Assembly: GCA_020632095.1 (NCBI GenBank)
Contig: JACKGF010000001.1
Coordinates: 669,366 to 733,365 of the forward strand
Source of the DNA: Candidatus Nomurabacteria bacterium
Lineage (GTDB): Bacteria > Patescibacteriota > Minisyncoccia > Phycocordibacterales > UBA918
Direction of reading: 5' to 3'
Length of the DNA: 64,000 bases
The first letter of the stretch is position 1, and each line of letters starts with the position of its first letter. Positions 2,625 to 54,211 of this stretch are shown piece by piece. The position numbers and the translations under genes were made by a program. A model generated the notes under the pieces. The model did no database searches and was not told the DNA's origin. It was given only the letters and a program-made list of their open reading frames with translations.

Positions 2625-4118
2625 CTAAAGAACTTCGTTGGCGTAATCTGCCAACCGCGAACGCTCACCACGCTGGAGAGTAATATGGCCGGCGTGCGCC
2701 CATCCCTTGAAGCGATCGACGACATAGGCGAGACCGGAGCTGCCCTCGGTAAGATAGGGCGTATCGATCTGGGCAATGTTGCCGAGACAGACCACCTTTG
2801 TCCTAGGACCAGCCCGCGTAATCAGCGTCTTCATCTGCTTCGGCGTCAGGTTCTGTGCTTCATCGATGATCAGGAATTTGTTGAGGAAGGTCCGGCCGCG
2901 CATGAAGTTGAGCGACTTGACCTTGATCCGGTTGCGAATCAGATCGTGTGTAGCCGCACGGCCCCAGTCGCCGGCATCGTTTTCGCTCTTGTTGAGTACC
3001 TCGAGGTTGTCTTCGAGGGCGCCCATCCACGGCCCCATCTTCTCTTCCTCGGTCCCCGGCAAGAAGCCGATATCCTCCCCCACCGACACAGTGACGCGAG
3101 TCATAATGATTTGACTGTATCTCTTAGAATCAAGGACCTGCGTCAGCGCTGCCGCCAAAGTGAGTAACGTCTTGCCAGTGCCAGCTTGACCAAGCAAGGT
3201 AACGAAATCAATTTCCGGATTCATCAGCAGATTCAACGCGAAATTTTGCTCACGGTTACGGGCATTGATTCCCCAGACATTGTTCTTGGGGTGAGTATAG
3301 TCGGTCAAAGTTGAAAGAACGGTTGCTCCGTCCGATACCTCACGCACCATTAACTGAAAAGGTGTTTCTCCTTCCATTACAAGGAACTGGTTGACTGGAT
3401 ACGGCGGGCGAGACGTTCCCTTAAAAGAGTACAAAACATGCCCATTGTCTCTGCCTGTCTCCATTCCTTCCGCGTACTCATTCCAAAACTCTGAACTCAA
3501 TTCACGTACGCCGGTGTACAAGTTATCGGTGTCTTCCAACACCTTGTCGTTAAAGTAATCCTGCGCTTGCAGCCCAAGCGTGCGGGCCTTGATCCGCATG
3601 TTGATGTCTTTGGACACCAGGATCACCAGACGTTTCGGATGCTGACGTTGCAGGTGGATAACGACCGCCAAAATCTGGTTGTCGGCTTTGGCCGTCGGTA
3701 GTCCTATTGGGAGTTCACTGGCGATTACCTCTGTCTGAAGGAAAAGGCGACCGTTGGCCATTCCACCAGACAGTCCGTTGAGTGCGATACCCTGGTCGAT
3801 GGCGTCGTCCGTACTGTTGACGATCTCGTCGAGTTTTCGTGTCGCCTCACGAACATTGCGGGCAACCTCAGACACTCCCTTCTTGTGATTATCCATTTCC
3901 TCAAGGGTCATAATCGGCAGAAAGACGTCGTGCTCTTCGAAGCGGTAGACACTCGTCGGGTCGTGCATCAAAACATTTGTATCGAGAACAAACAATTTCG
4001 GACCTACCACCTCAGCGACTGCAACATCAACGGGTTTTTTAGTGGCCACGGTAAAACCTCCATATTTAATCAAAAAGACCAGAGTACCACTCTGGGTACA
4101 GCTATGACTGTTATACAC
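2625..4118 (-). CDS. PIN domain + PhoH-like ATPase (YlaK/PhoH2 family)
   Basis: N-terminal PIN motif VLDTNVLMHDP; Walker A LLGQAGTGKTLLTLAAA; Walker B FLIIDEAQNL; GC-rich relative to surroundings; true start may be internal. Confidence 0.85.
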   Translation of the reverse strand: MYNSHSCTQSGTLVFLIKYGGFTVATKKPVDVAVAEVVGPKLFVLDTNVLMHDPTSVYRFEEHDVFLPIMTLEEMDNHKKGVSEVARNVREATRKLDEIVNSTDDAIDQGIALNGLSGGMANGRLFLQTEVIASELPIGLPTAKADNQILAVVIHLQRQHPKRLVILVSKDINMRIKARTLGLQAQDYFNDKVLEDTDNLYTGVRELSSEFWNEYAEGMETGRDNGHVLYSFKGTSRPPYPVNQFLVMEGETPFQLMVREVSDGATVLSTLTDYTHPKNNVWGINARNREQNFALNLLMNPEIDFVTLLGQAGTGKTLLTLAAALTQVLDSKRYSQIIMTRVTVSVGEDIGFLPGTEEEKMGPWMGALEDNLEVLNKSENDAGDWGRAATHDLIRNRIKVKSLNFMRGRTFLNKFLIIDEAQNLTPKQMKTLITRAGPRTKVVCLGNIAQIDTPYLTEGSSGLAYVVDRFKGWAHAGHITLQRGERSRLADYANEVL

Positions 4119-4601: not shown

Positions 4602-4841
4602 AGAAAATGATTAAGTGATAATAAATCTTGCTACATAAAACCCAATTCCTGCTCCTAATAGAAAAGTGAAAATAAGGGTTATCATCATTGCTACTTGATC
4701 CATATTTAATAAGTATACATTGTATGAGAGTAATTCGACAGCTAAGCCCTCGACTTTTGCGCCAAAAATAGGTATAACTATGGCCACAACGAGTGTGGTG
4801 CGGTGAGGCATACGCCCCACCGCACCACACTCGTCCAAAAT

Positions 4842-4914
4842 GGCGGCTATAGTATAACGGTTAATGCATCGGTTTGTGGTACCGATAATTCGGGTTCGAT
4901 TCCCGGTAGCCGCC
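4842..4914 (+). tRNA. tRNA-His (anticodon GTG) with encoded G-1; CCA not encoded
   Basis: Cloverleaf folded by hand: G-1 + acceptor GCGGCTA/TAGCCGC, D-stem GTAT/ATGC, anticodon stem TCGGT/ACCGA with loop TTGTGGT, T-arm TCGGG-TTCGATT-CCCGG, discriminator C. Confidence 0.9.
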
Positions 4915-4996
4915 CAATAAAGTAGCTAGAAACATTTGATTCAAATAATACCCAAATATTATACTTTGGTATTGGTATATGAATACACATACTATT

Positions 4997-5113
4997 TTGA
5001 ATGTTAAAACCGACAAGAAGTTGAAAGCTGAGGCCAAGAAAAGCAATCAAAAGCAAGTGCCGAGAGATGTTGGTGTTCAACCATTAGGCCGCACGGCCTT
5101 CACTTTGTATTGA
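4997..5113 (+). pseudogene. Remnant of DinJ/RelB-family antitoxin N-terminus (partial duplicate of 7921-8182), including operator-like palindrome upstream
   Basis: Approximately 100-nt near-identical copy of tatactttggtat..tatgaatacacatactattttgaatgttaaaaccgacaagaagtt.aaagc.gaggc.aa.aa; translates LNVKTDKKLKAEAKK.. then diverges; stop after 38 codons. Confidence 0.4.
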
Positions 5114-5169
5114 CTTTCAATACTTTTTTACTATTCTAAATCACAGAAACTCAATTACACCAAAGTGAG

Positions 5170-5754
5170 GTGAACATGAATCGTACTATTATAACCATCA
5201 CTGGTGCATCTGGTGTTGGCAAATCAACTCTTGAAGAAAGCTTAATCGAACACTTTGGTGGTGGCAGAATCGTCTCACACACATCACGAGACCCACGCCC
5301 AGGAGAGATTAAAACAAACTATGTTTTTTGCCAAAAATGGAAGTTGCGTTTTTGGATGTGCATTAACATCTTCTGTAGGACGGATTATTTATGGGTTATA
5401 AATGCCCATGGGAATCTGTATGCAGCACACACATCTCAATTCTATACTGCACTCAACGAGACTGGTTCGATTGCGTTTGGCTGCATATCGGACGGGTGTC
5501 ATCAGATAGTGGCCGATAGGTTTGAACCTGAGGGTATTGTCTGCAAAGCTATCCATCTGCTGCACCCAGGTGATTCTGAATTACGCCGTCGACTTGAAGG
5601 GCGCAAAGAAGATCCAGTCACCATTGAGAGACGCATCGAAAACTCCACAAAGTTAGAGAAAAAATCTCTAAAAAACCCTAATCTTTACCTGATTGAACCA
5701 GGTTCACCAGAGCAGGTTTTCAATCAAGTTATAGATATAATACACACCACCTAA
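5170..5754 (+). CDS. Divergent guanylate kinase-like P-loop protein (paralog)
   Basis: P-loop GASGVGKST; HTSRDPRPGE resembles the Gmk TTRxPRxGE motif; ..GNLYAAHTS resembles GNYYGTS; LRRRLEGRKED resembles LxxRLxxRGxD; central region divergent. Confidence 0.55.
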   Translation: MNMNRTIITITGASGVGKSTLEESLIEHFGGGRIVSHTSRDPRPGEIKTNYVFCQKWKLRFWMCINIFCRTDYLWVINAHGNLYAAHTSQFYTALNETGSIAFGCISDGCHQIVADRFEPEGIVCKAIHLLHPGDSELRRRLEGRKEDPVTIERRIENSTKLEKKSLKNPNLYLIEPGSPEQVFNQVIDIIHTT

Positions 5755-5836
5755 CCAAAAGCGCTCTGCAAATCCAGAGCGCTTTACTCATTTACAACGC
5801 CACAACTATTTATGAACGTGCTACTATCAAAGTATT

Positions 5837-6283
5837 ATGTCTACTAAATCATTACCCTCACTACCAAACTGCTTCTATCGGGTCAGCATAAAAGGACTCA
5901 TACTAAATGAACAAAGAAACAAGTTTTTAATTGGTAGAGACGAGGCAGGCTTTTGGGATCTACCTGGAGGCGGTCTAGAGTGGGGGGCTGCGCCGCAAGA
6001 AGATCTTACCAGAGAGATTGAAGAAGAAATGCAGTTGGCAGTTACAAAAGTTGCCGATCGGCCATGCTATTTTCTCACTGGACGACAAACAGTGAATCCA
6101 AATGTTCGCATCGCAAATGTTATCTATGAATGCCAAATTGCCAATTTTGATTTCACTCCTACGCCTGAATGTCTAGAAATCCAATTTGTAGACACAAAAG
6201 CTATTATTGATTTGGAAGTATCAGACACCGTGAGAGAGTTAATAAAAATATTTGATCCACAAAACCACACACAGCCGATCTAA
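5837..6283 (+). CDS. NUDIX hydrolase
   Basis: Nudix box GGGLEWGAAPQEDLTREIEEEMQL (GX5EX7REUXEEXGU). Confidence 0.85.
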   Translation: MSTKSLPSLPNCFYRVSIKGLILNEQRNKFLIGRDEAGFWDLPGGGLEWGAAPQEDLTREIEEEMQLAVTKVADRPCYFLTGRQTVNPNVRIANVIYECQIANFDFTPTPECLEIQFVDTKAIIDLEVSDTVRELIKIFDPQNHTQPI

Positions 6284-10814: not shown

Positions 10815-12722
10815 ATGATAATGTGGCACCACAAATCCAAGCTGACATCCTGCCTAGTAGTCACTTCACTAATAGCTGTTATTATCGGCAGCACATTTTT
10901 ATTTCTAACCTCGCCAACTACTCCGCCCCCAGTACCCGATAAGCCTTTATATTTAGACGCTTCATTACCCATAACAGAGCGTGTTTCTAATTTATTGTCA
11001 TACATGACCCTGGAAGAAAAAATTGGGCAAATGACTTTGGTGGAGAAGGATAGTATTAAAAAATTAAGTGACATTAGCGACTATCACCTCGGGGCGCTCT
11101 TGAGTGGCTCAGGGTCTAAGCCCGAAGAAAATACCGTGACTGGTTGGAAACAAATGATCGATACTTACCAAGCTGAAGCGACCCAATCTAGGCTCGGTAT
11201 TCCATTACTCTACGGTTCTGATGCAATTCACGGACATGCACACGTACCTGAGGCGACTATCTTCCCACACCTGATTGGCTTAGGTGCGAGCGGAGATTCT
11301 GAATTAGTGAAAAAAATAGCCTCTGCAACGGCAGTAGAAATGATGGCCACCGGTGTGAATTGGAATTTTGCACCCAACTTAGACATGCCTCAAGACATCA
11401 GGTGGGGTCGGGTGTATGAAACTTTTTCGGACGACCCAACCTTAGTTACAAAACTAGGCGCAGCCTACGTGCAAGGCTTACAGACCGCCGCAAATAATAC
11501 TGACGAGCAATTACAGGTTCTCGCCACCCCGAAACACTTCGTCGGACTCGGAGGAATGAGCTGGGACACATCACTAAACAAAAACTTTAAAATCGACCAA
11601 GGAGTTACCGACGCGAATGAAGCATTACTAAACGAAGTTTATCTACCGCCCTTCGCTGCCGCTATAGATGCTGGCGCCTTAAATATTATGGTTGGTCTCA
11701 ATACTTGGGGTGATGATCGTATGGTTCGACAAAAACATTTGCTGACTGATGTATTAAAAAAGCAGTTGGGGTTCAAAGGCTTTATTGTCTCTGACTGGTA
11801 CGGAGTGCATGAGGGCACGCATAATACTTTTTGGGCCACCACGGTCGCAATCAACTCTGGCGTCGACATGGTCATGCTTCCTTTTGACTATGAAACTTTC
11901 ACTCGACAGGTGAAGTGGGCAAATCGACTCGGCTTAATATCCGACGCGCGCATTGATGACGCTGTGAGCAGAATTCTCTACGCTAAGTTTTCCCTCGGTT
12001 TGTTTGACCAAGCAGGATCTACGGAGACGCTTACCACCATTCCCAACCAAGCTCACCGCGCACTAGCCCGCGAAGCGGTAGCCCAATCCTTAGTGTTGCT
12101 CAAAAATGAAAACTCTATCCTACCCCTCAAAACAAATGTTAGAAAAATTCGCGTGGCTGGCAGTGCTGCCAATAATATTGGAAAACAATCTGGAGCTTGG
12201 ACAATTGAATGGCAAGGTGTTGATGGTAACTGGCTTCCTAACAGTACTTCAATTCTGGCTGGGATTAAGGAAATTGCCAATAAAAATACTCAAATTGAGT
12301 TTGAAGAACAGGCACTATTTTCGACTGATTCCGACCAAGCCGATGTTGGTATCGCAATTGTAGGTGAATCGCCTTACGCTGAAGGTTGGGGCGACAACGC
12401 TAAACCATCATTAAGTGATGAGGATTTGACTACAATTAAAAACCTTAAGCAAACCAGTCGATCGGTCGTGGTGATTCTAGTTACCGGTCGCCCACTCATT
12501 ATTACTGACGAAATCAAAGACTGGGATGCAGTTGTGGTGGCTTGGTTACCAGGCAGCGAAGGAGCCGGTGTAGCCGACGTACTTTTCGGCACCAAACCAT
12601 TCACCGGCTCCCTCCCCCTACCTTGGCCTTCAAATATTAATCAGCTACCAATCACCATAAATGGCGAATCAAGCAATGACAGTAATGTGCTGTTTTCAAG
12701 ATATTTTAAACTCCTCTATTAA
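10815..12722 (+). CDS. Glycoside hydrolase family 3 (beta-glucosidase / BglX / NagZ-like), membrane-anchored
   Basis: GH3 N-domain motifs (NWNFAPNLDM..RWGRVYETFSDDP; KHFVGLGG; GFKGFIVSDW) and C-terminal domain; N-terminal TM. Confidence 0.85.
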   Translation: MIMWHHKSKLTSCLVVTSLIAVIIGSTFLFLTSPTTPPPVPDKPLYLDASLPITERVSNLLSYMTLEEKIGQMTLVEKDSIKKLSDISDYHLGALLSGSGSKPEENTVTGWKQMIDTYQAEATQSRLGIPLLYGSDAIHGHAHVPEATIFPHLIGLGASGDSELVKKIASATAVEMMATGVNWNFAPNLDMPQDIRWGRVYETFSDDPTLVTKLGAAYVQGLQTAANNTDEQLQVLATPKHFVGLGGMSWDTSLNKNFKIDQGVTDANEALLNEVYLPPFAAAIDAGALNIMVGLNTWGDDRMVRQKHLLTDVLKKQLGFKGFIVSDWYGVHEGTHNTFWATTVAINSGVDMVMLPFDYETFTRQVKWANRLGLISDARIDDAVSRILYAKFSLGLFDQAGSTETLTTIPNQAHRALAREAVAQSLVLLKNENSILPLKTNVRKIRVAGSAANNIGKQSGAWTIEWQGVDGNWLPNSTSILAGIKEIANKNTQIEFEEQALFSTDSDQADVGIAIVGESPYAEGWGDNAKPSLSDEDLTTIKNLKQTSRSVVVILVTGRPLIITDEIKDWDAVVVAWLPGSEGAGVADVLFGTKPFTGSLPLPWPSNINQLPITINGESSNDSNVLFSRYFKLLY

Positions 12723-12771: not shown

Positions 12772-13200
12772 CTATAGTAAACGGAGCTGTTCTGTCTGCT
12801 TCGTCTTTCCTTGGTTTCTTACGTATCTTTCAACTTGTTGCCAGCTTCCCTTTTCAGAGATAGTAGAAATAAAGTAACCATCACTCCAAAATTCACCTCC
12901 CCACAACTCCTTCCGCAATTCAGGAAATTGCTTAAAGAGTTGTTTGGTTGTGATTGACTTAAACATACCCACTATCTCACTACCACTGTATTTAGGATGG
13001 AATGAACACAGTATGTGAATGTGATCACCGTCAGTACCCAATTGTTCAAACCAAACGTCATAACGTTCTGTCATAGCAGCAGCAATTTCCCGAATTGCTC
13101 TGGTAATAGGTGGTTCTAACAGTGCTTTACGGTATTTCACAGGAAAGACTATGTGGTAGTGGGTATCGAACACGCAGTGGTTACTTTTGACAATGCTCAT
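12772..13200 (-). CDS. tnpA: IS200/IS605-family Y1 (HUH) transposase TnpA, no adjacent tnpB
   Basis: HYHIVFPVKYR and HIHIL motifs (HUH and Y1 region); 142 aa; GC-rich subterminal hairpins at 12733-12753 (CAGGGGTAGAACCCCTG) and 13247-13267 (CCCCGCGGCAGAGCCGCGGGG). Confidence 0.85.
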   Translation of the reverse strand: MSIVKSNHCVFDTHYHIVFPVKYRKALLEPPITRAIREIAAAMTERYDVWFEQLGTDGDHIHILCSFHPKYSGSEIVGMFKSITTKQLFKQFPELRKELWGGEFWSDGYFISTISEKGSWQQVERYVRNQGKTKQTEQLRLL

Positions 13201-13306: not shown

Positions 13307-14005
13307 GTGATAAAATTTGTGAATATGGATATTCTCGGGCAAAAAAATTCTAACCCAACGATAAAGAGTAAATCTATGTTTAGTCACAAAAACGTAGTTA
13401 TTGTAGTTTTTTTACTCACTCTTTTTAGTATTGGTATAATCAGTGACTACAGTGAAAAACTGGCTAGTGTAGGAGTTATTCTTTTTATTACAATATGGCC
13501 AGCCTACATTTTGCTATGGTCTCACATAAATAAAAAAAAGTTATTAACTCATACTGACTCAAATACTGCTGTTACTGATCCGGAAGACTCAAAATATTTA
13601 CTTAATCGAACTTCCACAACAAAAATTGACTCAGAAATAATTAATTTGACACCTAAACTTGAAGCTAATCAAATATCGCTCTTTCGACCATCTTGGGTAA
13701 AATACTTAGCATTTTTTAATTTATTATTATTTGTAGTTGGAGGTAAATATATTTTAACTCTTCCTCTTGCAACTTTTATAGGTCTGGCCTGGGGTGGTAG
13801 AAGTGTTAATTTAGTTCTTGTAATGAGCATTATATCGTCCATTGGAGCTCTATGTTTCGTAATATTTTCCACTCTTTCAATTATCCTTGGGTTTAGAAAA
13901 AAGTATTCAAATTACTTTACCAAAGCATCAAAAATAATAATGTTTATTCCGGTTATCTCGCTCATTCCAACTTCAGTTTTTATTCTTTACTTAATATTTT
14001 CCTAA
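13307..14005 (+). CDS. Hypothetical multi-pass membrane protein
   Basis: Several hydrophobic helices; no recognisable motif. Confidence 0.4.
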   Translation: MIKFVNMDILGQKNSNPTIKSKSMFSHKNVVIVVFLLTLFSIGIISDYSEKLASVGVILFITIWPAYILLWSHINKKKLLTHTDSNTAVTDPEDSKYLLNRTSTTKIDSEIINLTPKLEANQISLFRPSWVKYLAFFNLLLFVVGGKYILTLPLATFIGLAWGGRSVNLVLVMSIISSIGALCFVIFSTLSIILGFRKKYSNYFTKASKIIMFIPVISLIPTSVFILYLIFS

Positions 14006-14152
14006 TCTTTATCTCACCAAGACATAACCAGGAGTTTTTATCAGATTGAAAGTTTTTTACAAATAAAAACCACGGTTACCAGAACTATAAACAATCTCCC
14101 TAAACCAAACAGTAATTTCACACCTTAAAATCAAAATGATATACTAGCAAGT

Positions 14153-14695
14153 ATGTCGAATTATGAATCAAAAATCGAACACAATGTCGCACAAGCTATA
14201 CGTAAATTAATTCAACAATTAAACGATAATGATTTTATTTGGGGTAGAGATGAACTGAGAGGACTTGGAGCTGAGACAGCTCTTAAAGTAATAGTTCAAA
14301 CCGCTTGTGATCAAGGAGGTATTAGTGAATTAGGTAATCTGGAAGAAACTTTGATACAAATAGCCAAAGCTACTTCACCCAATGCTGACTTAAACAAACT
14401 TGAATCAAACCAAGGAATTGCTGACCAACCTTCCCCAGAGAAGGTCTTATCCGCGCTTGAAAAGCTAGCGACCAAAACCTATTCCCTGTCTTCAGAATTA
14501 GCCGAAGTTTATCTACAAAATCTAGAGCTTCAATACACTTCAGAAATAACAGCTTGTGAACAAGAATCTAACTGTATAAATAGTGTCCTAGCAACAGCTG
14601 TAAAACGGGCAGTCTCTACTGGCATTGACGGCGAACAAATAAAAGAATTCCGCAGCAAAATTGAATCTTGGGCATACCTCCCAGAAGCAGCGTAA
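14153..14695 (+). CDS. Hypothetical protein
   Basis: Intact 180-aa ORF; helical composition; no motif. Confidence 0.4.
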   Translation: MSNYESKIEHNVAQAIRKLIQQLNDNDFIWGRDELRGLGAETALKVIVQTACDQGGISELGNLEETLIQIAKATSPNADLNKLESNQGIADQPSPEKVLSALEKLATKTYSLSSELAEVYLQNLELQYTSEITACEQESNCINSVLATAVKRAVSTGIDGEQIKEFRSKIESWAYLPEAA

Positions 14696-14887
14696 CAACA
14701 TTCAAATTGTAATAACTTAAAATGAACTACCCCGGCCTGAAGGCGGGGGTAATATTCCTTGAATATACAAAATCACAGCCACTTACCTGGTGAAGTTTTA
14801 GACTGACTTTGAGTGCTATATTTTATGTAAAAACTCTTCATATTATCCTCACAATCTTTCAAAGAGAATTTCTGATAAAATAAAGTC

Positions 14888-16087
14888 ATGTCTATAGAAA
14901 ACCAAACTACAAATACCGAATCTTCTGGTGAGAAAAAAATTACTGAATATATTGAGAGAATCTACCAAGGGGAAATTGATCCAGATGACATCACTCCAGA
15001 AAAGTTAGGACCATTTTACTCTAAAGTTAGAGATTATTTTATTGAACAGATTCCTTCTCGATATAGCGACGATTCATGGCCAATAGAATTAGTGGCAGAT
15101 ATGTGGAACCCCGCCCAACCAATAGACTCAGAAGATGTAGAAAAACAACGCCTTACCCGTAGAATTGCTCTACATTGTTACGAACTTAGTCTGAGTGAGG
15201 CTCAAAATAAAACCATTGGACATTTACCAGTCGGAAAACTGCCTGACCCAGTCGTCCGAGAAACAACAAGCTTAAGTGCTTCAGAAGAAATGCCCACACC
15301 AAATCAACCTGCCTCAGAAACCAGCCATTCTCTATCGGTTGAAGAAAGAAAAAAACTTAACGGCTGGCCGGCTAGCTATGAATTGGCTAAGATTGCTATT
15401 AAAGAAGGTGTCGATTTGTCTTCTTTATCACGTGAAGAATATGCATCATTTGCAATTCAAAATCACTTAACTATTGACGATAGCCAATTACGAACTGCTC
15501 CATGGCAAAGGATGTGCACCTCGGTTGAAGAAATAGTCTCAAAAAATAAAGAAGAGGCTTTAAAAATAACCGAGGAATCAGACAAATCTTTTGCCCGCTT
15601 TTGTTACGAAATGAAGGATAAAGCTAGTCAGCGTGATCGCTTTATATCTGACAATATTAGAGTCCGAGAAGGAACCAAAGATTCAGATTCATGGTTATAT
15701 TTCGGAATCAATACCGACAGTAATAAAGAAGGCGCGGAAGCTTTAGAAACATATAAATCTTACGTCTCTATTAAAGACCTCAACTCACTAACTCCCGATA
15801 GGTTCACAGAGTTTATGCGCCTCCTCCAAGAAACAAACTATAAAGGTGATGTTAAAATTTTCCAAGACATGGCTGGACAGGGTATCAAACTAAACGACCA
15901 AATTGTCATACACGGCAGTTCAGAAGCAGACGCCAGACTAGGACTTGAATTAGCCGAAAATTTTTTCGGTAATGACTTAGACCAAAAAAGCTTTGGCAAG
16001 GATGAAATAATTGACGGAGAAAAAATGAGCTACAGTCAAATTTTAGCCCAACAAATCACAAAGGCCATTCATACTGAAAACTCCTAA
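14888..16087 (+). CDS. Hypothetical protein
   Basis: Intact 399-aa ORF; no motif recognised. Confidence 0.4.
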   Translation: MSIENQTTNTESSGEKKITEYIERIYQGEIDPDDITPEKLGPFYSKVRDYFIEQIPSRYSDDSWPIELVADMWNPAQPIDSEDVEKQRLTRRIALHCYELSLSEAQNKTIGHLPVGKLPDPVVRETTSLSASEEMPTPNQPASETSHSLSVEERKKLNGWPASYELAKIAIKEGVDLSSLSREEYASFAIQNHLTIDDSQLRTAPWQRMCTSVEEIVSKNKEEALKITEESDKSFARFCYEMKDKASQRDRFISDNIRVREGTKDSDSWLYFGINTDSNKEGAEALETYKSYVSIKDLNSLTPDRFTEFMRLLQETNYKGDVKIFQDMAGQGIKLNDQIVIHGSSEADARLGLELAENFFGNDLDQKSFGKDEIIDGEKMSYSQILAQQITKAIHTENS

Positions 16088-16123: not shown

Positions 16124-16924
16124 CTATTTACTGATATTCCTTCTAGGTATTAATTTTGAACTTGCCCAAAGACCATCAAAGAAAACCTCCATTGTATTAC
16201 TAATTTCAATAGATTTAATTAATACGGCTGAGGATTCATCATACGAATTAATAAAAGCTACACTGTTATCAAAGATAATTATTGTATTACTGAACTTACC
16301 CTCAAGAGCTTTTGGAATAATCCTCGGCTCCCTAAACTCAAAAGCAGTTTGACTAATTGTTCTTTTCTTCAAAAAGCTTGATTCCCACAATGATCTAGCT
16401 CTTATTCCTCGTTGTTTTCTAATTTTTATAAAATAATCACTGTATTCCTTACCACTTTCTGAAAAGAAATTTCGTGTAGGAGAAATTATTTTCCACTTTC
16501 GACTAGCACAATATAGAGCTGTATCAATAACAGTTTTTACACCATCGAAACCATTGTAAGCAAATACTTCAGTAGCAATACTGTTCTGGGTTGAAATTTT
16601 ATCAAATAAAGGCAACAAATTGATAAAATCGAGTTGTTTATTTTTTAACTCATCAATTTTTTCAACAAAACTCCTTTCAATAAGATTTGGATCTTTCATG
16701 GTGTATTTATTTACTCCCGTTTGTATATGCAAGCCAACCAAACCCTTCTGTTCCAAACTACAAAGTGCACTATGAGCAGTAGTTCTTTTGATACCAGCCC
16801 GTTTTGCAATCTCAGCGGTTGTCTGAGAGCCAAACTGTAAACCAGTTACGTACAGAGTAATTTCCGTTGAAGTAAGACCTATCTGACTAAGGAATGATTT
16901 TATATCACCATTTATTTTTTTCAT
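16124..16924 (-). CDS. TrmB-family HTH transcriptional regulator
   Basis: N-terminal wHTH LGLTSTEITLYVTGLQFGSQTTAEIAKRAGIKRTTAHSALCSLEQKGLV; start taken at internal MKKINGD. Confidence 0.6.
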   Translation of the reverse strand: MKKINGDIKSFLSQIGLTSTEITLYVTGLQFGSQTTAEIAKRAGIKRTTAHSALCSLEQKGLVGLHIQTGVNKYTMKDPNLIERSFVEKIDELKNKQLDFINLLPLFDKISTQNSIATEVFAYNGFDGVKTVIDTALYCASRKWKIISPTRNFFSESGKEYSDYFIKIRKQRGIRARSLWESSFLKKRTISQTAFEFREPRIIPKALEGKFSNTIIIFDNSVAFINSYDESSAVLIKSIEISNTMEVFFDGLWASSKLIPRRNISK

Positions 16925-17056
16925 ATAAATCCTATAATACATAATTGCTACTATTTGTCGACGACATATCGTCGTCACATATTACCAAAATCGTTTTATC
17001 AAACTAAAATAATGATTGTAGTTGTTCTTTAAAATCAATCATTAAGGAGATTAAAA

Positions 17057-18301
17057 GTGGCTTCCAATAAGAAAGTTCATATCATTAGTGGCGGAACCAT
17101 CTCGAAGGTTCGTCCTCATTTCGCTCTTAGCGCTCCGGCGTATGGTGCGGTTGGAAAGACCCTCAAAGAGCTGGCAGTCGCTCAATTCCCCACCATGGAC
17201 ATTGTTCTACATCTAACCCGGATGGCAGGCGGAAACCGCAATCTGGAAACAGTTGAAGATGTAGGCCGGCTGGTAGAAGAACTGAGGAATGATTCCCTTA
17301 CTAAAGTGATAATCATGGCCGTCGCTATGGCTGACTTCTCTGGCGAAGTAAACGCTGAAGTTGGCCGTCTCAAGACCAATACTGGTCCACTTACCATGCA
17401 ACTCACACCCAACGAGAAGATTATCGATAATATTCGTAATCTTCCCAATCAGACTGGCGTGGTTCGGAAAGATATTTTCTTGGTGAGTTTTAAAGCGACT
17501 GCTGGTGCCACCGGTGCCGAGCAGTACCAAGCAGCGCTCCATAATCTGAAACGTTCAAGTTCAAACTTGGTATTTGCCAACGACCTTGAAAACCATCGTT
17601 GTATGGTGGTAACACCAGAAGAAGCCCGGTATCACGAAACCACTAACCGACTTGAGGCGCTGCAGGGTTTGGTCGAAATGACTGAAATGCGCTCCCATTT
17701 GACGTTCACCCGCTCGACAGTAGTAGATGGTGTTCCGGTAGCTTGGGCTTCCCCGCTGGTGCCAGAAGCTTTACGCACTGTAGTGGACCACTGCATCCAA
17801 GGCGGTGCCTACAAGCCTTTCCATGGAGCAACAGTTGGTCACTTTGCCGTGAAGTTAACTGATACTGAATTTTTGACTTCTCGTCGCAAGACGGACTTCA
17901 ATCAATTATCTGAAACGGGACTGGTCCATATCAAGACAGACGGACCAGATAGTGTCGTTGCTTTCGGCAGTAAGCCATCGGTCGGCGGACAGTCACAGCG
18001 CAGTATTTTTCGAGAACATGAAGGTATGGACTGCATCGCGCATTTCCATTGCCCGATTCGGGAAGGCTCACTAGTGCCACAAGTCTCACAACGTGAGTTC
18101 GAGTGCGGCAGTCATGAATGCGGACAAAACACTTCACAAAACCTCGGTATTTTTGGCAGAATCAAAGCTGTCTATCTCCAAGAGCATGGGCCAAACATCG
18201 TGTTTCCACGAGACATAGACCCGTCTGAAGTAATCGACTTCATCGAAGCCAACTTCGACCTTTCAAAAAAGACTGGGGGTTACCAACTGGAAACTGCCTA
18301 A
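17057..18301 (+). CDS. Fusion of a CoaB-like (phosphopantothenoylcysteine synthetase / DFP fold) domain and a class II aldolase/adducin-like domain; GC-rich
   Basis: N-terminus HIISGGTISKVRPHFALSAPAYGAVG, ..VAMADFSG.., LTMQLTPNEKIID, LVSFKATAG parallel the CoaB motifs (ITAGGT.E.IDPVR.ISN.SSGKMG, AAVADY, VVGFAAET); C-terminus KPSVGGQSQRSIF...CIAHFHCP parallels class-II aldolase KPSSE...VVHTHSP; local GC about 50% versus about 37% background. Confidence 0.5.
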   Translation: MASNKKVHIISGGTISKVRPHFALSAPAYGAVGKTLKELAVAQFPTMDIVLHLTRMAGGNRNLETVEDVGRLVEELRNDSLTKVIIMAVAMADFSGEVNAEVGRLKTNTGPLTMQLTPNEKIIDNIRNLPNQTGVVRKDIFLVSFKATAGATGAEQYQAALHNLKRSSSNLVFANDLENHRCMVVTPEEARYHETTNRLEALQGLVEMTEMRSHLTFTRSTVVDGVPVAWASPLVPEALRTVVDHCIQGGAYKPFHGATVGHFAVKLTDTEFLTSRRKTDFNQLSETGLVHIKTDGPDSVVAFGSKPSVGGQSQRSIFREHEGMDCIAHFHCPIREGSLVPQVSQREFECGSHECGQNTSQNLGIFGRIKAVYLQEHGPNIVFPRDIDPSEVIDFIEANFDLSKKTGGYQLETA

Positions 18302-18579
18302 TAAAACCTAGACGTGGTTGGGTTGGGATAGGTATCCCAACCCAACTCTGTCACCATCAATTTTTGAAGTACTTTCGTACCCAAGCCATAGTCTACCTAT
18401 GGCTTTTTTGTATAGATTACGACACACAACATCACGTCGCTATATACCCACTAATAAATATTCATCTCTACACACATTATATTAAATTAAGATATTTCCC
18501 CGACCTTGAACAAATTACCCCTCATAAAAAATCTCCCCAATCACACACCTTCTCTTAATGATATTCCTAAGGTGTTCAG

Positions 18580-18625
18580 AAGACTCTAAAAACCTTTCGG
18601 TTAACCGAAAGGTTTTTAGAGTCTT
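18580..18625. repeat. Perfect 23-bp-arm inverted repeat centred on GTTAAC
   Basis: AAGACTCTAAAAACCTTTCGGTT|AACCGAAAGGTTTTTAGAGTCTT; lies between the fusion gene and the TnpA pseudogene. Confidence 0.6.
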
Positions 18626-18879
18626 TGGTGTGTGGTATTAGAAACACTGTATTAATTAATATAGGTGTTTGTGCGTTTGAGGTGGGGATTCAAGGGGATA
18701 ATTAATCAGTTGACTAAACCGCCTTTCAGTAAAACAAACCCCGACTTCGGTCGGGGTTTGTTTTATATCTAAAAACCTTCGGCTTCAGCCGGAGTGTACG
18801 TTTGCAGGCAACGCATACACTAAATACAATACGTATACGCAAACGTACCATTAAAACCCTATCACATTGTTATTACGAA

Positions 18880-19289
18880 ATGAAATACCACCTGGTATGG
18901 ACTCCAAAATACCGAGGTAAGGTACTAGGTCCACAAAAGGTTAAAGACGAGTTACGAAGAACCTTTGAAACCATAACAAGATGGAAACACTGGGAAATCA
19001 TTGAACTCAATATCCAAGAAGACCATATACACATGATTCTATCAGCTTCACCTAGAGACTCCATCTCATACATAATGCAGATGATTAAAGGCACAAAAGC
19101 TCAGCTTGGTTAAAAAAGAAAATTAAAAGAGCTCATGGTCTTTATGAACAAAAGTCACCATGGGCCAGAGGCTATTTTGTTTCTACGATTGGTCTAGATG
19201 AAATGATTATCTGTCGGTATGTTAAACACCAACATCACCATAATCAAGTTGATCAACCATCTCTCTTTACCAAACTTATCTCTGATTAA
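18880..19289 (+). pseudogene. tnpA: IS200/IS605-family TnpA, frameshifted at an A-run
   Basis: MKYHLVWTPKYRGKV..HIHMILSASP..MIKGTKAQLG then a +2 frame continues ..KKKIKRAHGLYEQKSPWARGYFVSTIGLDEMIICRYVKHQ; frameshift at ggttaaaaaagaaaatt; hairpins on both sides (18726-18758; 19301-19316; 19354-19375). Confidence 0.6.
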
Positions 19290-19636
19290 CTATGTATCTG
19301 CCCGCTTCGCGGGCCTGAAGCTCACGCCGTTAGGTTGAGCCAAAGCCACCGGCCCTAAGGCCGGTAGTTGTTTACTTACAAAACCAACGTCCGTGGTTCA
19401 TTACAGATTGGATAGAGTTTGATTAACTTAATTTAATAGAAAAAATTATTAAACAAACATCTACTCGTCCCCCACCTAAAGAAGGTGACAAAAAGGAGGT
19501 TTTTGACAATGATGATTAATATTTATAAAAAATATTAATCTAGATCTAATGATGGGTTTTATTGGATTTGTGTAAGTGAGCTATTTTTAATTCTACCTTT
19601 CAAAACAAATTGTTTAAAATAACAAGAACTTTACTA

Positions 19637-21685
19637 CTACAGATAACTCACTTCACCTGTCGAGCCGTTAATAGAAATGGAGGATTTTTCAACCAATGGT
19701 TTTTGGACACAAACTACTGGTAGACCAAGCTCGCGAGCGACAATGGCCATATGTGATAGTAAGCCACCTTGTTCGGTTACGATTCCCACTATTTTATCTA
19801 GATGTTGAGTGAGGTCGGGGGTCAAAAATTTTGTATACAAAATTTTTGACCCTGACACAGCATCCAAGTCCTCCACTCGCACCAACGACCCTTCCGTTAC
19901 TCCAGCCGAAAGGCCAATGCTTTCCTGACTAAGATTTTCATCCTGATAAATAAAACTAGCAATTCGCACTGGAAAACTAAACTTTTGATTATCTAAATAT
20001 TGAGACTCTCTTTGCTTGCAAACTTCAAGTGATATTGACTCACTTACTAATTCATCAACTGTAGCAAAATAAACCAGCTCTGACTCTTCTTTAAATACCA
20101 CTTCCCCATAATCTTCAACAGCACGCCGCACATGACTGATCAGACAAACACTAGCAATCCGCGCCTTTTCCCGTAAGGCCATATAATCTCTAGCTTTCTT
20201 TATGTAGGGAGACAATCCATGCCGACGCCACTCTGGTAACCGGTTCCACCAATTATCAAACTGTTTCGTATTTTCAATCACTGATTTATTACCTGTTTCT
20301 ACAAAATCAGATTTATCATCAATCGAAACCGAGTTACCAACTAGACTATCAGATTCATAAGTGAACTTATTTTGCTCAAAATTCGCCAACTGAGGTAAAT
20401 CGTAATTCAACAATCCTGATAAATTTGTCGCGTCATTTTTTAGCAGATGTCTCAAAGTAGTTAACGCCTTCTGTGAACGTAGGTTTACTTCAAAAATCAA
20501 AGCATAATTTTCTATAAAAAACTGCCATTTTTTCTCAAGAGAATCTGATTCATCTAAATTCACACCCAGCAACTCATCCACCCTTTGATTTAATTTTTGA
20601 TACGGCGCTAGAGACATAAAACTTAAAGCGACTTGATTGGCAAAAGTCACAAAGGATCCAGACAAACATTCAATTTTAGGTATTTGTGAATTAAACTTTT
20701 TATAACCCAATATCGGAAACAACGAACGTACTTCTGCCTGCTTATCGACAAACAATTCGTTTCCAAACATTCTCAATTGATCAGTAGCAAAATATTTTAC
20801 CCCACACTTCTTATAAGCTTCTTCAATCGGCCCCCCCTGCGCATACATAGCCTCAAGCATTGATAAAGCTAACGGACGTGGTTTAGTGAAGGTTTCTGCC
20901 AGCGTTGTTTGTTCAAAATAGTAATAATCTTCATTTTTTAACTCATTTTCCAAATATTTAATTCCCTGCCAATTTGCCTCCTTAACACTGGTGACTGGTC
21001 TGGTCTGCAAAATGTATACCCTTTCATCTTTAATCGCCCATTCGATATCCTGTGGCCACTGATAAATATCTTCTATTTCCCTAGCCAACTTGGCTAACTC
21101 TTCTGTATGTGAAAATTTAAATTTATGTATATATGAACGCTCAAATAAAAACTTTATTTGTTTAACACTCTCTCCTCCCACCACAGTTTCACCTACTCCA
21201 TGATTGTATTCCAATACCATCTCCCGTCCGCCGGTGGGATTTCGTGAAAAAATAACACCCGCTAGATCCGGGTCTATACATTCTTGAATAATTACTGAAA
21301 ATCTAAAATCATTACCTAGTTTTAACCTTGCATCATCCACTACTGACAGAATCGCTTCCGATAATGTTTCTTTAGTGACTTTAAGTATAGTTTTAAACTG
21401 ACCAGCGGAGGAACTGGTTTTTCCATCTTCTATCAATGCCGCCGATCGAACAGCGTAAAAATCAGTCGGTAACTTTTCATCAATCTCATTCTGGAGATTT
21501 ACCAGCAAATTATTATATTCAGACGATTTATTTACCTTAGCCTGAACTAAATCACCAACAACTTTAGTCGGAACCACTACAAACGCTGGAACATTAAAAC
21601 CGGCCGCGGTAAGCTCGCGTAAGCGTTGTGCCTTAGAGCCAATTTCAAACCCTATCTTTAGATCATTTTCGTTTAATAACAACAT
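19637..21685 (-). CDS. PEP-utilizing enzyme family protein with rifampin-phosphotransferase/PEP-synthase-like architecture (N-terminal ATP-grasp/PPDK_N, C-terminal phosphohistidine swivel domain)
   Basis: N-terminus KIGFEIGSKAQRLRELTAAGFNVPAFVVVP (PPDK_N-like); C-terminus GGLLSHMAIVARELGLPVVCV (PEP-utilizers His motif); no TIM-barrel domain. Confidence 0.7.
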   Translation of the reverse strand: MLLLNENDLKIGFEIGSKAQRLRELTAAGFNVPAFVVVPTKVVGDLVQAKVNKSSEYNNLLVNLQNEIDEKLPTDFYAVRSAALIEDGKTSSSAGQFKTILKVTKETLSEAILSVVDDARLKLGNDFRFSVIIQECIDPDLAGVIFSRNPTGGREMVLEYNHGVGETVVGGESVKQIKFLFERSYIHKFKFSHTEELAKLAREIEDIYQWPQDIEWAIKDERVYILQTRPVTSVKEANWQGIKYLENELKNEDYYYFEQTTLAETFTKPRPLALSMLEAMYAQGGPIEEAYKKCGVKYFATDQLRMFGNELFVDKQAEVRSLFPILGYKKFNSQIPKIECLSGSFVTFANQVALSFMSLAPYQKLNQRVDELLGVNLDESDSLEKKWQFFIENYALIFEVNLRSQKALTTLRHLLKNDATNLSGLLNYDLPQLANFEQNKFTYESDSLVGNSVSIDDKSDFVETGNKSVIENTKQFDNWWNRLPEWRRHGLSPYIKKARDYMALREKARIASVCLISHVRRAVEDYGEVVFKEESELVYFATVDELVSESISLEVCKQRESQYLDNQKFSFPVRIASFIYQDENLSQESIGLSAGVTEGSLVRVEDLDAVSGSKILYTKFLTPDLTQHLDKIVGIVTEQGGLLSHMAIVARELGLPVVCVQKPLVEKSSISINGSTGEVSYL

Positions 21686-21687
21686 TT

Positions 21688-22995
21688 TTATTTAACCAGA
21701 TGTAAAACTCCACCAACGGCTTTTGTACCCGAAGCATTGGTCACTGTGCCAGAAACAATCGCTCTGATTCTTTCGTCTTCTTTTTGCTTAAAAGGTACCT
21801 GTGAAGCTAGGGTAAAAACCGCATTATTGAACCCAGGGGCCCTTACCTGCCAACTTATTTTTCCATCGTTATCTTTACTAGTCTCAACCTCAGCCTCAAA
21901 ACTTTTCTTACTTGTTCCCTCTTTCTTATTTTTATAAAGCAACCAAGTGTGTGATGGGTACTCCGGGGTATTTGACTGCACTACGGAATTATCTATCAAG
22001 TAAAAATTTTCATCCTCATCCCATAAGACGAATTGATGAGTTGTGGCTTCGACATCTTTATAACCTGGGAAGAAAATCTTTTTACTATAGTCTGAAGAAT
22101 AACTACTCTCAACTAAAGCTTGAGCCGCAAAAGTTTGACCTCGATATTTAACTTCTGCCGTCCCCACACTCTGAAATTGAGTATAGGTTGGTTGATTTCT
22201 TGTGACAAAATCTCCTGCAATATCTGAAATAGTTATCTCCATCGGTTCACCGTTTAACAATACTGTTGTTTGATACTTATCTCTCGGTGATGAGTCTGAA
22301 GCCCACTTTTTTTCAATACTTTTAACAAACCGATTTGTCACTAAATCTGTACCGTCAGAATACTTTGCATCATAGTCTGAAAAGAAGCTGTTTTGGTAAT
22401 AACCATTTAAAAAAGTGTAGTGGGAAAACATTCCGTTACCTCTTTCAATTCGATTAAAATCAACTTCCAAAATGAACGGCGTAGATGTTGCTCCTCCATA
22501 AATTGTAACAGCATCACTTAAGAACCGTTTATTACTACTGTCACTACTAGTCGACACGAACGAATCAGGTGATGGTAGCGGGTACTTTTGATTCAACCTT
22601 TTAATTAATTGTTGATAATCAGTTCTTGGTACACTCTCTTCTATCTTCTGTTCCAAACTAGCCTTAACTGATTCCAATAACGCAATGTGTTCCAAGTAAC
22701 TAACTTGTTGTCTTTTAACTTCTAAACCATAAGATATTGCAATTGCAACCAAAACTATCGTAGCAATAACACTAATTATCAACCAAACCTTTTTGTTGGA
22801 GAGTGCCAACCAACGGCGACCGGTATAAACAATACTAGAAAACACTCCCCCTACCACCAAAGCAGCAATGCTGAAAAACTGTACTACCGAAGACCCCACA
22901 CTAAATATCATATCCGGAGGCAAAAGCGCATGGGCTGGCTTAGGAATGAATAGTATGAATATAAAAATGAAAATCAAACCTGCAAAATTCATCAC
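21688..22995 (-). CDS. Hypothetical membrane protein, translationally coupled to the PEP-utilizing enzyme gene
   Basis: Two N-terminal TM helices plus a large extracytoplasmic domain; 2-nt gap to the downstream gene. Confidence 0.4.
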   Translation of the reverse strand: MMNFAGLIFIFIFILFIPKPAHALLPPDMIFSVGSSVVQFFSIAALVVGGVFSSIVYTGRRWLALSNKKVWLIISVIATIVLVAIAISYGLEVKRQQVSYLEHIALLESVKASLEQKIEESVPRTDYQQLIKRLNQKYPLPSPDSFVSTSSDSSNKRFLSDAVTIYGGATSTPFILEVDFNRIERGNGMFSHYTFLNGYYQNSFFSDYDAKYSDGTDLVTNRFVKSIEKKWASDSSPRDKYQTTVLLNGEPMEITISDIAGDFVTRNQPTYTQFQSVGTAEVKYRGQTFAAQALVESSYSSDYSKKIFFPGYKDVEATTHQFVLWDEDENFYLIDNSVVQSNTPEYPSHTWLLYKNKKEGTSKKSFEAEVETSKDNDGKISWQVRAPGFNNAVFTLASQVPFKQKEDERIRAIVSGTVTNASGTKAVGGVLHLVK

Positions 22996-53197: not shown

Positions 53198-54211
53198 ATG
53201 AATATGCTTACAGAGAAGTTTCAACCCGGCAACGTAAAGTTGAACGTCGTTATCATCGGTCTTGGTAGACAAGCTCTTGAAGAGCACTTGCCTGCAGTAC
53301 TCGATTCTGACAATTATCATCTCATTGGTGTCTGTGATACTAATGAGGAAATGCTTGCAAATGCAAGCATTAACCTCGATGCAGCGGTCGAACGCTTCAC
53401 CGATGTTGCCACAATGCTTGCAACGATCAATGCGGATGTCGCTATTGTCGCAGTACCTCACCATGAGTATCTGCCGATCATAACGGAATGTGCAAAGAAC
53501 GGCGTCCATATCCTGAAAGAAAAGCCCTTTGCGCGCAACATGCGTGAAGCGAAAATCTTTCAGGAGATAGCTGAAAAGGCCAACATACATCTGATGACTA
53601 CTTTCCAAAGACGTTTTCATCCTTTGTATCAGGCTTTTGTGCCGATGATTGCGCGTATCGGAAAAATACACACCATCACCTGCCTATATACAATCTCTTC
53701 AAACAATCCTAATTCTGGATGGAGAGGTAGTAAAAAGAAAGCTGGCGGCGGTGTCTTGCTTGATATGGGATACCACGTGCTTGATCTCTTGATCTGGTAT
53801 TTGGATAGACCAACAATTCTCTCTTCGACCATGCAGATATGCAAACAGAACGATCATGATGTGGAGGATGTTGCTCAGTTCACTTTTGAAGTGAATGGCG
53901 CACACGGCACGGGATTGATTTCTTGTGTACATCCGAAAAAACATGAAGAGTTTGTCGTGATTGGCGAAAAAGGATCGGCCGTTCTGACAAGAAATCGCAT
54001 CGAGCGGTACAACAACAATCAAGTGCTCGTTGACTATCTCGAGTCTGAAAAAGGTTGGCATGCAGCGATGATAAACCAATTGGATTATTTTGCGACGGTG
54101 ATTTCTGGACATATTGAGCCGAAGTACAGTACTCCGCAATTCCAAGTTGATAACCATGTGGTTGTCATCGATGAACTTTACTCTCAAGCTGAGGAGAAAA
54201 CTAATGAGTAA
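53198..54211 (+). CDS. Gfo/Idh/MocA-family NAD-dependent oxidoreductase (WbpB-like sugar dehydrogenase)
   Basis: N-terminal Rossmann NVVIIGLGRQALEEHLPAV; GFQRRFHP; family size about 337 aa; GC-rich. Confidence 0.8.
   Translation: MNMLTEKFQPGNVKLNVVIIGLGRQALEEHLPAVLDSDNYHLIGVCDTNEEMLANASINLDAAVERFTDVATMLATINADVAIVAVPHHEYLPIITECAKNGVHILKEKPFARNMREAKIFQEIAEKANIHLMTTFQRRFHPLYQAFVPMIARIGKIHTITCLYTISSNNPNSGWRGSKKKAGGGVLLDMGYHVLDLLIWYLDRPTILSSTMQICKQNDHDVEDVAQFTFEVNGAHGTGLISCVHPKKHEEFVVIGEKGSAVLTRNRIERYNNNQVLVDYLESEKGWHAAMINQLDYFATVISGHIEPKYSTPQFQVDNHVVVIDELYSQAEEKTNE

Follow-up and report, generated by a model that had tools for sequence, protein, structure and literature searches.

A CoaB-like and class II aldolase-like fusion protein of Candidatus Nomurabacteria and jumbo phages: a putative two-domain enzyme with a predicted TrmB-like regulator

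What does a protein do that joins a domain of the phosphopantothenoylcysteine synthetase (PPCS, CoaB) fold to one of the class II aldolase fold, and how did its gene come to lie between two transposase genes? Both questions are raised by a 64,000-nucleotide stretch of Candidatus Nomurabacteria bacterium DNA (assembly GCA_020632095.1, contig JACKGF010000001.1, positions 669,366 to 733,365 of the forward strand), hereafter called the window, in which the plus-strand gene at 17057-18301 (the focal gene) encodes such a fusion. A preliminary description, made from the sequence alone, had not recognized the combination as a described architecture and had suggested horizontally acquired metabolic cargo in a segment bracketed by transposase genes of IS200 insertion sequences (IS). 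Our analysis indicates instead a resident gene of a widespread accessory family. The explanation that we find best overall, and rather likely, is a TrmB-regulated two-domain enzyme, with an N-terminal domain that would activate its substrate with a nucleoside triphosphate (NTP) and a metal-dependent C-terminal domain.

The open reading frame (ORF) starts with GTG, 7 nt downstream of a Shine-Dalgarno sequence read directly from the DNA (AAGGAG, 17044-17049), and encodes 414 amino acids (aa), the N-terminus of which is conserved among homologs in a 60-sequence alignment. About 80 bp past the stop codon, a consensus scan detected a terminator-like hairpin followed by a T-run (18383-18405). A 30-nt palindrome, 93% self-complementary, also lies just past the stop codon (18317-18346). 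The identical protein is recorded in databases as 'hypothetical protein H6784_03265 [Candidatus Nomurabacteria bacterium]'. Pfam profiles recognized DFP (PF04127) at residues 3-180, with 44.6 bits against a cut-off of 22, and Aldolase_II (PF00596) at residues 255-333, with 29.1 bits against 22.2. The latter match spans only the first half of the profile (positions 15-93 of 183); that of a relative, P0144, spans positions 15-158. On the basis of these matches, of structural models and of residue alignments, the CoaB-fold domain was delimited to approximately residues 1-215 (17057-17701) and the aldolase-fold domain to residues 222-414 (17720-18298).

An AlphaFold2 model of the full-length protein, computed from the 60-sequence alignment, reached a predicted local distance difference test score (pLDDT) of 86.6 and a predicted template-modelling (TM) score of 0.73. 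Foldseek comparison of its N-terminal half with crystal structures returned CoaB as the sole structural relative, with E-values down to 4e-12 and target-normalised TM scores of 0.65-0.77 for prokaryotic CoaBs. A separate model of residues 222-414 (pLDDT 84.0) gave 34 top PDB hits that all belong to the class II aldolase/adducin superfamily (TM about 0.45-0.57), including FucA, AraD, OtnC/YgbL, 5-deoxyribulose-1-phosphate aldolase, pyruvic oxime dioxygenase (POD), NovR, adducin and 3-hydroxy-2-methylpyridine-dicarboxylate decarboxylase; the resemblance is distant. A PDB sequence search with the protein alone gave nothing meaningful, and a PDB profile search with its family recovered CoaB only, for the N-terminal part. 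No match to the model was found in the BFVD viral structure library at E <= 0.001, and none to the enzyme among the PADLOC defence-system models, in which the adjacent TrmB-like regulator had only weak matches at the level of the helix-turn-helix. The reading frame lies where the preliminary description had placed it, and both of its domain assignments were confirmed by profile and structure searches alike.

To which extent does the N-terminal domain resemble known CoaB enzymes? It has the same fold as the CoaBs of Streptococcus pneumoniae (2gk4), Mycobacterium smegmatis (6th2) and Escherichia coli (1u7z), at 15-20% identity. Residues were mapped by aligning a hidden Markov model (HMM) profile to solved CoaBs and by MAFFT alignment with E. 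coli CoaB, and both approaches agreed. In M. smegmatis CoaB, D281 is the cation-coordinating aspartate, R207 and N211 are active-site residues, and a K-X-K-K loop contacts the triphosphate of CTP (PMC7794376). The domain studied here keeps G12-G13-T14, G30, A90, D93, F145-K146-x-T148 and A174-N175-D176, and the loop between GGT and G30 has the same length as in CoaB. D93 is invariant and was aligned by both methods to the cation-binding aspartate (D281 in M. smegmatis, D279 in E. coli). The GGT/GPT loop, this aspartate, the F-x-x-x-T motif and the A-N-D motif are therefore shared with CoaB and, because these features come with a common fold, the domain probably binds NTP-Mg2+ in the same place.

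In contrast, active-site and triphosphate-loop residues of CoaB are replaced. The active-site arginine (E. coli R206, M. smegmatis R207) is replaced by F22, which is phenylalanine or leucine across the family, and the active-site asparagine (N210 and N211, respectively) by A26. At the position of the K-X-K-K loop, the family reads R104-L105-x-T/S, where R104 and L105 are the only invariant or almost invariant residues. Curated CoaB equivalog models all failed, with scores about six-fold under the cut-off or lower still: 35.7 against 219.7 bits for TIGR00521 (coaBC_dfp), 27.6 against 265 for NF005231 and 18.5 against 217.2 for TIGR02114. The family has signatures of its own in this domain, namely an invariant H21 and an L-T-K-M-A motif. 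Both recur in phrog_35624, which corresponds to the N-terminal domain without the aldolase-fold domain, is 30-35% identical to it and is carried by cultured phages of Pseudomonas (Otagovirus) and Caulobacter (Bertelyvirus). In phage PPSC2, the gene is located inside a block encoding ThyX, ribonucleotide reductase and glutaredoxin. A search for a split fusion found no separate aldolase-fold half encoded nearby in these cultured phages. Since the stand-alone proteins share the family-specific residues, the N-terminal domain appears from its sequence to be a distinct CoaB-fold subfamily that is able to work alone.

The C-terminal domain, which was mapped against E. coli FucA and AraD by hhalign and MAFFT, gave a similar picture. 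At 13-20% identity it keeps the fold, the metal-binding histidine triad and the P-S phosphate-pocket motif of the class II aldolase/adducin family. H329, H331 and H377 are invariant and were aligned to H92, H94 and H155 of FucA, H377 being aligned as well to the histidine of the AraD 'HSHGP' motif, which we take to be H171. P307-S308 corresponds to P70-S71 in the FucA phosphate pocket, S308 being the equivalent of S71. At the other pocket positions, H262 is aligned to N29 and V309 to S72, and T274/S275 lie near the position of T43. Unlike in FucA and AraD, where a carboxylate (E73 and D76, respectively) completes the metal site and acts as acid/base, the family has an invariant glycine, G310. 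Such a histidine-only site would resemble the dioxygenase members POD and NovR, and MtnB, more than the aldolases. Four additional invariant cysteines (C326, C332, C350 and C355), together with H353 and E349, surround the site, and a second, cysteine-based metal site is plausible from this conservation. Equivalog models of the characterized members MtnB and OtnC also failed in NCBIfam (about 13 bits against cut-offs of 137-250).

In the bifunctional enzyme CoaBC (Dfp), too, a CoaB-type domain shares its polypeptide chain with another catalytic domain. There, however, the flavoprotein CoaC, a decarboxylase of the HFCD family dependent on flavin mononucleotide, is N-terminal of CoaB, whereas here the partner is C-terminal and has a metal-dependent aldolase fold. 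The preliminary description did not recognize the combination as a described architecture. This holds in so far as no described function and no dedicated family model exist, database sources naming the fusion in generic terms only; in the available parts of the literature, including a jumbo-phage comparative-genomics overview and papers on DPANN and the Lake Baikal virome, no description of a CoaB-aldolase fusion was found. The fusion is nevertheless far from rare, and can be called a common, if only generically annotated, family. A word-indexed search recovered 3333 homologous clusters at 90% identity, the best 120 of which are all full length (408-491 aa) and 51-81% identical, and an exhaustive search of representatives at 50% identity yielded 549 at E <= 1e-3 and 137 at E <= 1e-30. 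No additional Pfam domain was detected in the extra sequence of long relatives (P0229 and others).

A pattern-limited scan of 185,579 species-representative genomes found about 100 carriers, mainly from the candidate phyla radiation (CPR): Saccharibacteria, Paceibacterota, Nomurabacteria, Kaiserbacteria, Peregrinibacteria and Absconditabacterales. The others were Bdellovibrionales, Micavibrio, Polyangiaceae/Myxococcales, Rickettsiales-like and gammaproteobacterial metagenome-assembled genomes (MAGs), and a few odd bins labelled as methanogens or Armatimonadota. The full fusion also occurs in at least 147 IMG/VR viral contigs, many of them 200-570 kb long, and in a 595-kb 'uncultured phage' (LR756511.1). 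No PF04127 or PF00596 protein is present in the Tn-seq protein tables of the cultivated Saccharibacterium Southlakia epibionticum, which argues for an accessory rather than a core gene. The focal protein thus belongs to an accessory family that is conserved but patchily distributed, and that occurs in many jumbo phages as well as in CPR bacteria and in some proteobacteria with a predatory or parasitic lifestyle.

When 127 dereplicated proteins were placed in a neighbour-joining tree, viral copies were interspersed with cellular ones, which supports horizontal movement of the family between phages and cells over long timescales. Copies from odd taxa, labelled as methanogens, Obscuribacterales, Actinomycetes or Armatimonadota (loci L012, L023 and L040 from Methanosarcinales MAGs, L032 from Methanobacterium, L016, L017 and L019), are singletons nested among viral sequences, and for this reason are probably prophages or phage contigs binned wrongly. 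The protein is strongly conserved: 47-62% identity is kept across very distant carriers, and more than 100 columns are invariant in the 60-sequence alignment, whose members are 51-81% identical. Between close loci the enzyme is 77-80% identical where neighbouring genes reach 45-59% only, a pattern expected for vertical inheritance of a strongly constrained gene. Both features point to strong purifying selection on the enzyme.

Is the gene regulated? A TrmB-family gene, noted as divergent in the preliminary description and recognized by the Pfam TrmB profile (PF01978; 40 bits against 25.6), is located upstream on the opposite strand (16124-16924, minus strand). It encodes 266 aa from an ATG at 16924, as does the NCBI record of the identical gene; the mechanically called ORF reaches 16978. 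A TrmB-like partner of about 260 aa, divergent from the enzyme gene with a median gap of about 109 bp, accompanies 36 cellular loci and no viral locus, and all 24 partners that were scanned match PF01978. The window protein falls within a Nomurabacteria/Kaiserbacteria clade of the tree, every member of which has TrmB. The regulator profile matches Pyrococcus furiosus TrmB (3qph) and TrmBL2 (5bpd) over profile positions 4-151. The N-terminal winged helix and the dimerisation helix are shared with these sugar-sensing regulators, the partners described here being shorter at about 260 aa and without detectable similarity to the sugar-binding C-terminal domain of TrmB.

Alignment of upstream regions revealed a candidate operator between the two genes, the 23-nt element TTGTCGACGACATATCGTCGTCA (16955-16977), which is near-invariant in five out of five clade members in an otherwise poorly conserved intergenic region; its clade form is TTGTCGAC[G/A]ACA[C/T][A/T]TCGTC[A/G][T/A]CA. 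The element is unique in the window, and 100 shuffles gave no match even with three mismatches. Elsewhere it was found only at the homologous position of ortholog loci (L001-L005, L010, L011 and L173), among them the one further hit from a metagenome-wide scan. By consensus matches only, it overlaps the -35 hexamer of a promoter-like pair for the regulator (16961-16934, minus strand) and abuts a pair for the enzyme (16982-17010, plus strand). The arrangement is therefore that of a regulator transcribed divergently from the gene that it presumably controls, with a conserved operator-like element between them. The candidate operator TTGTCGACRACAYWTCGTCRWCA is clade-specific, and the operator search of the window gave no further regulon member. 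A shorter motif, TGTCRAC, is enriched across all TrmB-linked loci (0.59 against 0.09 hits per 220 bp), but was rejected as a family-wide operator because it is too loose.

The TrmB-enzyme pair and the operator are kept in close relatives of the focal locus (L004, L005, L010 and L011, with 80, 77, 79 and 76% enzyme identity, respectively); the regulators of L004 and L005 are 48-59% identical to that of the window. In L005, the operator-like element is followed by a NUDIX gene that overlaps the enzyme gene, which indicates an operon there. NUDIX recurs in the clade, since L011 carries, 80 bp downstream of the enzyme gene on the same strand (2790-3959), a gene whose 389-aa product starts with a nucleoside 2-deoxyribosyltransferase-like domain (Pfam) and ends, by eye, with an apparent NUDIX box. 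Judged by its distribution, the TrmB-enzyme pair is ancestral to the Nomurabacteria/Kaiserbacteria clade.

These observations can be combined into the following scheme, which we consider the best explanation. The N-terminal domain would bind NTP-Mg2+ in a CTP-like manner and convert an acidic substrate into an activated acyl- or phospho-nucleotidyl intermediate; as the arginine, the asparagine and the K-X-K-K loop of CoaB are replaced, this substrate should be other than 4'-phosphopantothenate and cysteine. The C-terminal domain, with a metal bound by three histidines and possibly a second cysteine-based site, would act on a phosphorylated substrate derived from a sugar or a nucleotide; given that the catalytic carboxylate is a glycine, this step should be neither the canonical aldol nor the epimerase reaction. 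In cells, the TrmB-like protein would bind the operator and repress the gene as long as no ligand releases it, and in phages the gene would be carried without the regulator. Since the cofactor-binding cores of both domains are kept and the substrate-specific or catalytic residues are changed, the sequences point to a new activity rather than to PPCS or aldolase; known folds with a new activity are thus probable.

The genes surrounding the family give a weak indication of the substrate. Neighbours were counted in 127 dereplicated loci, with cluster identities verified by Pfam. TrmB was present in 29 of them, followed by an unannotated protein of about 110 aa (16), an ADP-ribosylglycohydrolase (ADP_ribosyl_GH; 13), a histidine phosphatase (His_Phos_1; 9), a metallophosphoesterase (Metallophos; 9), HD_4 (6) and a MaoC-like protein (6). 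NUDIX, Nuc_deoxyri_tr2, CYTH, HIT, a DarG-like macrodomain, dNK, AAA_28, Thg1, and RNA and DNA ligases occurred in individual cases. In three Saccharibacteria loci, the enzyme gene is followed by His_Phos and ADP-ribosylglycohydrolase genes on the opposite strand. These neighbours lean weakly to phospho-metabolites of nucleotide or ADP-ribose type, and a phospho-sugar metabolite derived from a nucleotide or from ADP-ribose is our leading, though tentative, guess for the substrate.

The 110-aa family itself is the commonest same-strand downstream partner, in viral as in cellular loci (for instance L083 2477-2815, L085 7697-8101 and L159 7353-7673). It is characterized by the motif KPSALEGRRLxWxRxAWxxHNLxGHPLMQ...HDxTxP and by E, G, W, H, N and H residues that are invariant. 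The family is without a relative in Pfam or the PDB, and it is absent from the window.

Several points weigh against the proposed scheme. Genes located within 400 bp of the family gene form 171 different clusters and, apart from TrmB, no neighbour is found in more than about 13% of the 127 loci; moreover, nucleotide and repair genes are common in jumbo-phage genomes anyway. Some of the IMG/VR 'viral' contigs could be misclassified CPR DNA. From about residue 150 onwards, the regulator matches no Pfam or PDB sequence, and its C-terminal half belongs to no recognizable ligand-binding family. We infer nucleotide binding, metal binding and repression from homology and conservation; no biochemical datum and no paper were found for any family member.

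The rival explanation that survives best is compatible with the proposed enzyme and concerns only the history of its gene. The GC content of the focal gene is 49.2% against 39.9% for the window, the second highest among 51 long ORFs; the GC excess pointed out in the preliminary description is genuine and amounts to +9.3 points. Across 145 family loci, gene GC follows flank GC closely (r = 0.97, slope 0.94), exceeding it by 2.8 points on average, and only two loci reach +9.3 points, which places the focal gene at about the 98th percentile of the family. At third codon positions (GC3), the enzyme gene has 0.47 against 0.24 for the adjoining TrmB gene, whose overall GC is 32.6%. The enzyme gene alone might have been replaced recently by homologous recombination from a relative or phage of higher GC, with no role for IS elements. 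The sister loci do have a higher GC (46-50% in the flanks, 49-55% in the genes of the family), the phage and cellular copies interleave in the tree, and the two genes are slightly incongruent: the regulator is nearest to that of L010 (68%) and farthest from that of L004 (47%), the enzyme being about equally close to all four relatives (76-80%). Against a replacement, the nearest available relatives share only about 71% nucleotide identity, so that no donor is in hand, and the window protein groups inside its own clade.

Other conserved genes of the window are GC-rich too: a PIN-PhoH fusion gene (2625-4118, minus strand) is the most GC-rich long ORF of the window (52.1%, GC3 0.62), and a DegT-type aminotransferase gene (54114-55412) and a GH3 glycosidase gene (10815-12722) reach 47.7% and 45.6%, respectively. 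GC is thus heterogeneous in the host genome, which also suits another possible cause, that the genome is drifting to low GC and that its constrained or highly expressed genes are slower to follow. On balance, we regard a replacement as possible but doubtful. Neither of these two explanations involves the IS200 elements.

A second alternative takes the fold of the N-terminal domain at face value. The protein would be a non-canonical coenzyme A (CoA) enzyme, in which the CoaB-like domain couples cysteine to 4'-phosphopantothenate or an analogue of it and the aldolase-fold domain takes the place of the CoaC decarboxylase, the fusion thereby feeding CoaD and CoaE. CoaB is indeed the sole structural relative of this domain, and the class II aldolase superfamily includes decarboxylases: 3-hydroxy-2-methylpyridine-dicarboxylate decarboxylase and YgbL/OtnC were among the fold hits, OtnC and MtnB being weak NCBIfam matches as well. 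The MaoC-like hot-dog protein, of a type that typically acts on acyl-CoA, is encoded immediately downstream in the six cellular loci mentioned above. In one phage contig (L122, IMGVR_UViG_3300017766_004476), the family gene is directly preceded by a gene for a genuine CoaD-CoaE fusion (phosphopantetheine adenylyltransferase/dephospho-CoA kinase; 4783-5952), which scores above the NCBIfam equivalog cut-offs for both enzymes.

However, L122 was the only locus with CoaD or CoaE among the 165 loci searched, none was found in the 64-kb window, and no CoaC, CoaA or CoaX was found near a family gene; the surroundings in L122 otherwise resemble a tRNA-repair and metabolic block. The active-site arginine and asparagine and the K-X-K-K loop of CoaB (PMC7794376) are replaced, and the curated CoaBC and CoaB models are far from satisfied (35.7 against 219.7 bits for the best). 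The gene is also accessory, being found in about 100 of 185,579 species and missing from the tables of the cultivated Saccharibacterium, and the stand-alone phage version sits with genes for dNTP synthesis, not for CoA. In addition, decarboxylation of phosphopantothenoylcysteine needs thiol oxidation by a flavin, to which a His3-metal aldolase fold offers no obvious route. A role in CoA synthesis is therefore improbable. The COASY-like fusion of phage L122 may be of interest by itself.

Could the protein be no enzyme at all? Adducin is among the fold hits of the C-terminal domain, and both domains lack the canonical catalytic residues of their parent families, as would be the case for a ligand-binding or scaffolding protein whose domains merely bind nucleotide and metal. 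The metal triad and the serine of the phosphate pocket are kept, though, and phages carry the gene among metabolic genes. Furthermore, the invariant polar residues cluster at the two predicted active sites, a pattern typical of catalysis: H21, D93, R104, K121, R137-K138-D139, K146, N175-D176 and E188-E189 in the N-terminal domain, and H262, S308, Q312-R315, H329, H331, E349, H353 and H377 in the C-terminal one. We consider this explanation very improbable, and return to the enzyme and the origin of its gene.

The preliminary description had correctly reported one intact and one frameshifted IS200-family tnpA gene on either side of the locus, both outside the module formed by the enzyme and its regulator. 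The intact copy (142 aa; 12772-13200, minus strand) scored 116 bits with Pfam and 125.8 bits with NCBIfam. The other is a Y1_Tnp (Pfam) pseudogene (18802-19268, plus strand) that tblastn splits over two frames, residues 7-81 matching 18862-19089 and residues 105-142 matching 19161-19268, with hairpins upstream (18730-18765, confirmed here) and downstream (19348-19365). Between the enzyme terminator and this remnant lies the 46-bp palindrome noted in the preliminary description, which is indeed perfect (18580-18625) and is not repeated elsewhere in the window. It does not belong to the enzyme module, and may be a structure of an IS200 left end or a terminator that acts in both directions. The two TnpAs share 34% identity over 77 aa, no nucleotide similarity and no common ends, and neither is repeated in the window; they thus represent different elements. 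In short-read assemblies of the same organism, there are breaks at the positions of both elements, which suits insertion sequences that are present in several copies and inserted into a variable neighbourhood. L004, L005, L010 and L011 have no IS200 at the locus, and L005 even keeps the phosphoenolpyruvate (PEP) synthase-like and ~430-aa genes that lie past the right-hand IS200 in the window.

Comparison of these sequences indicates that the IS200 elements are unrelated later insertions and that the focal gene, which IS200-free relatives keep together with its regulator, its operator and, in L005, the downstream genes, is resident. IS200/IS605 elements, whose ends are asymmetric, move as single-stranded units and are not known to carry flanked cargo along in the manner of composite transposons. 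That the enzyme arrived as cargo of an IS200-mobilised segment of about 6 kb is scarcely credible: two tnpA genes do flank a 5.6-kb segment, the gene does exceed the GC of the window and the assembly breaks do suggest multi-copy elements, but the TnpAs are unrelated, one is a pseudogene, synteny in L005 runs past the supposed right-hand boundary, and the segment is compositionally non-uniform, as the low GC and GC3 of the TrmB gene attest. The long-term movement of the family between phages and cells does not involve the IS200 elements either.

Some other features of the neighbourhood deserve mention. Between the intact IS200 and the TrmB gene, three consecutive plus-strand ORFs (232, 180 and 399 aa; 13307-16087) have no family match; they are present in L001-L003, from the same organism, and other genes occupy this place in L004 and L005, which makes this a variable region. 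The PEP-synthase-like gene (19637-21685, minus strand) encodes 682 aa with the ATP-grasp N-terminal domain of PEP synthase/PPDK and the phosphohistidine 'PEP-utilizers' swivel domain, without the C-terminal PEP/pyruvate-binding domain. Its best NCBIfam matches, to PEP synthase, the prodigiosin ligase PigC and rifampicin phosphotransferase, are all far under cut-off, and the gene contains a perfect interlocking palindrome with 19-nt arms (19819-19852). The adjoining gene (21688-22995, minus strand) encodes a protein of 435 aa that matches no family and has a membrane segment at its N-terminus, and both genes are kept in L005 (11996-14002 and 14029-15321) at 45% and 48% identity, respectively.

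Taken together, the loss of the signature catalytic residues of both parent families, with the cofactor cores kept, is the usual footprint of a new activity, and the automated names 'phosphopantothenoylcysteine decarboxylase' and 'fuculose-phosphate aldolase' should not be trusted for this family. The regulator and its operator offer an experimental handle, as the inducing ligand is expected to be identical with the substrate or closely related to it. In its most ambitious form, which we consider unlikely, the enzyme would catalyze an undescribed two-step reaction common to giant phages and to episymbiotic or predatory bacteria, a nucleotide-dependent activation followed by a metal-dependent rearrangement or cleavage. 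If so, one possible class of substrates would be ADP-ribose-, NAD- or CoA-related phospho-metabolites, the N-terminal domain would represent a new class of CoaB-fold ligases and the C-terminal domain a His3/Cys4 variant of the class II aldolase fold; in the boldest version, the protein would be a flavin-independent substitute for CoaBC. The family is among the more strongly conserved proteins of unknown function common to CPR bacteria and jumbo or huge phages, and the identity of its substrate would inform both the metabolism of episymbionts and what giant phages supply during infection.

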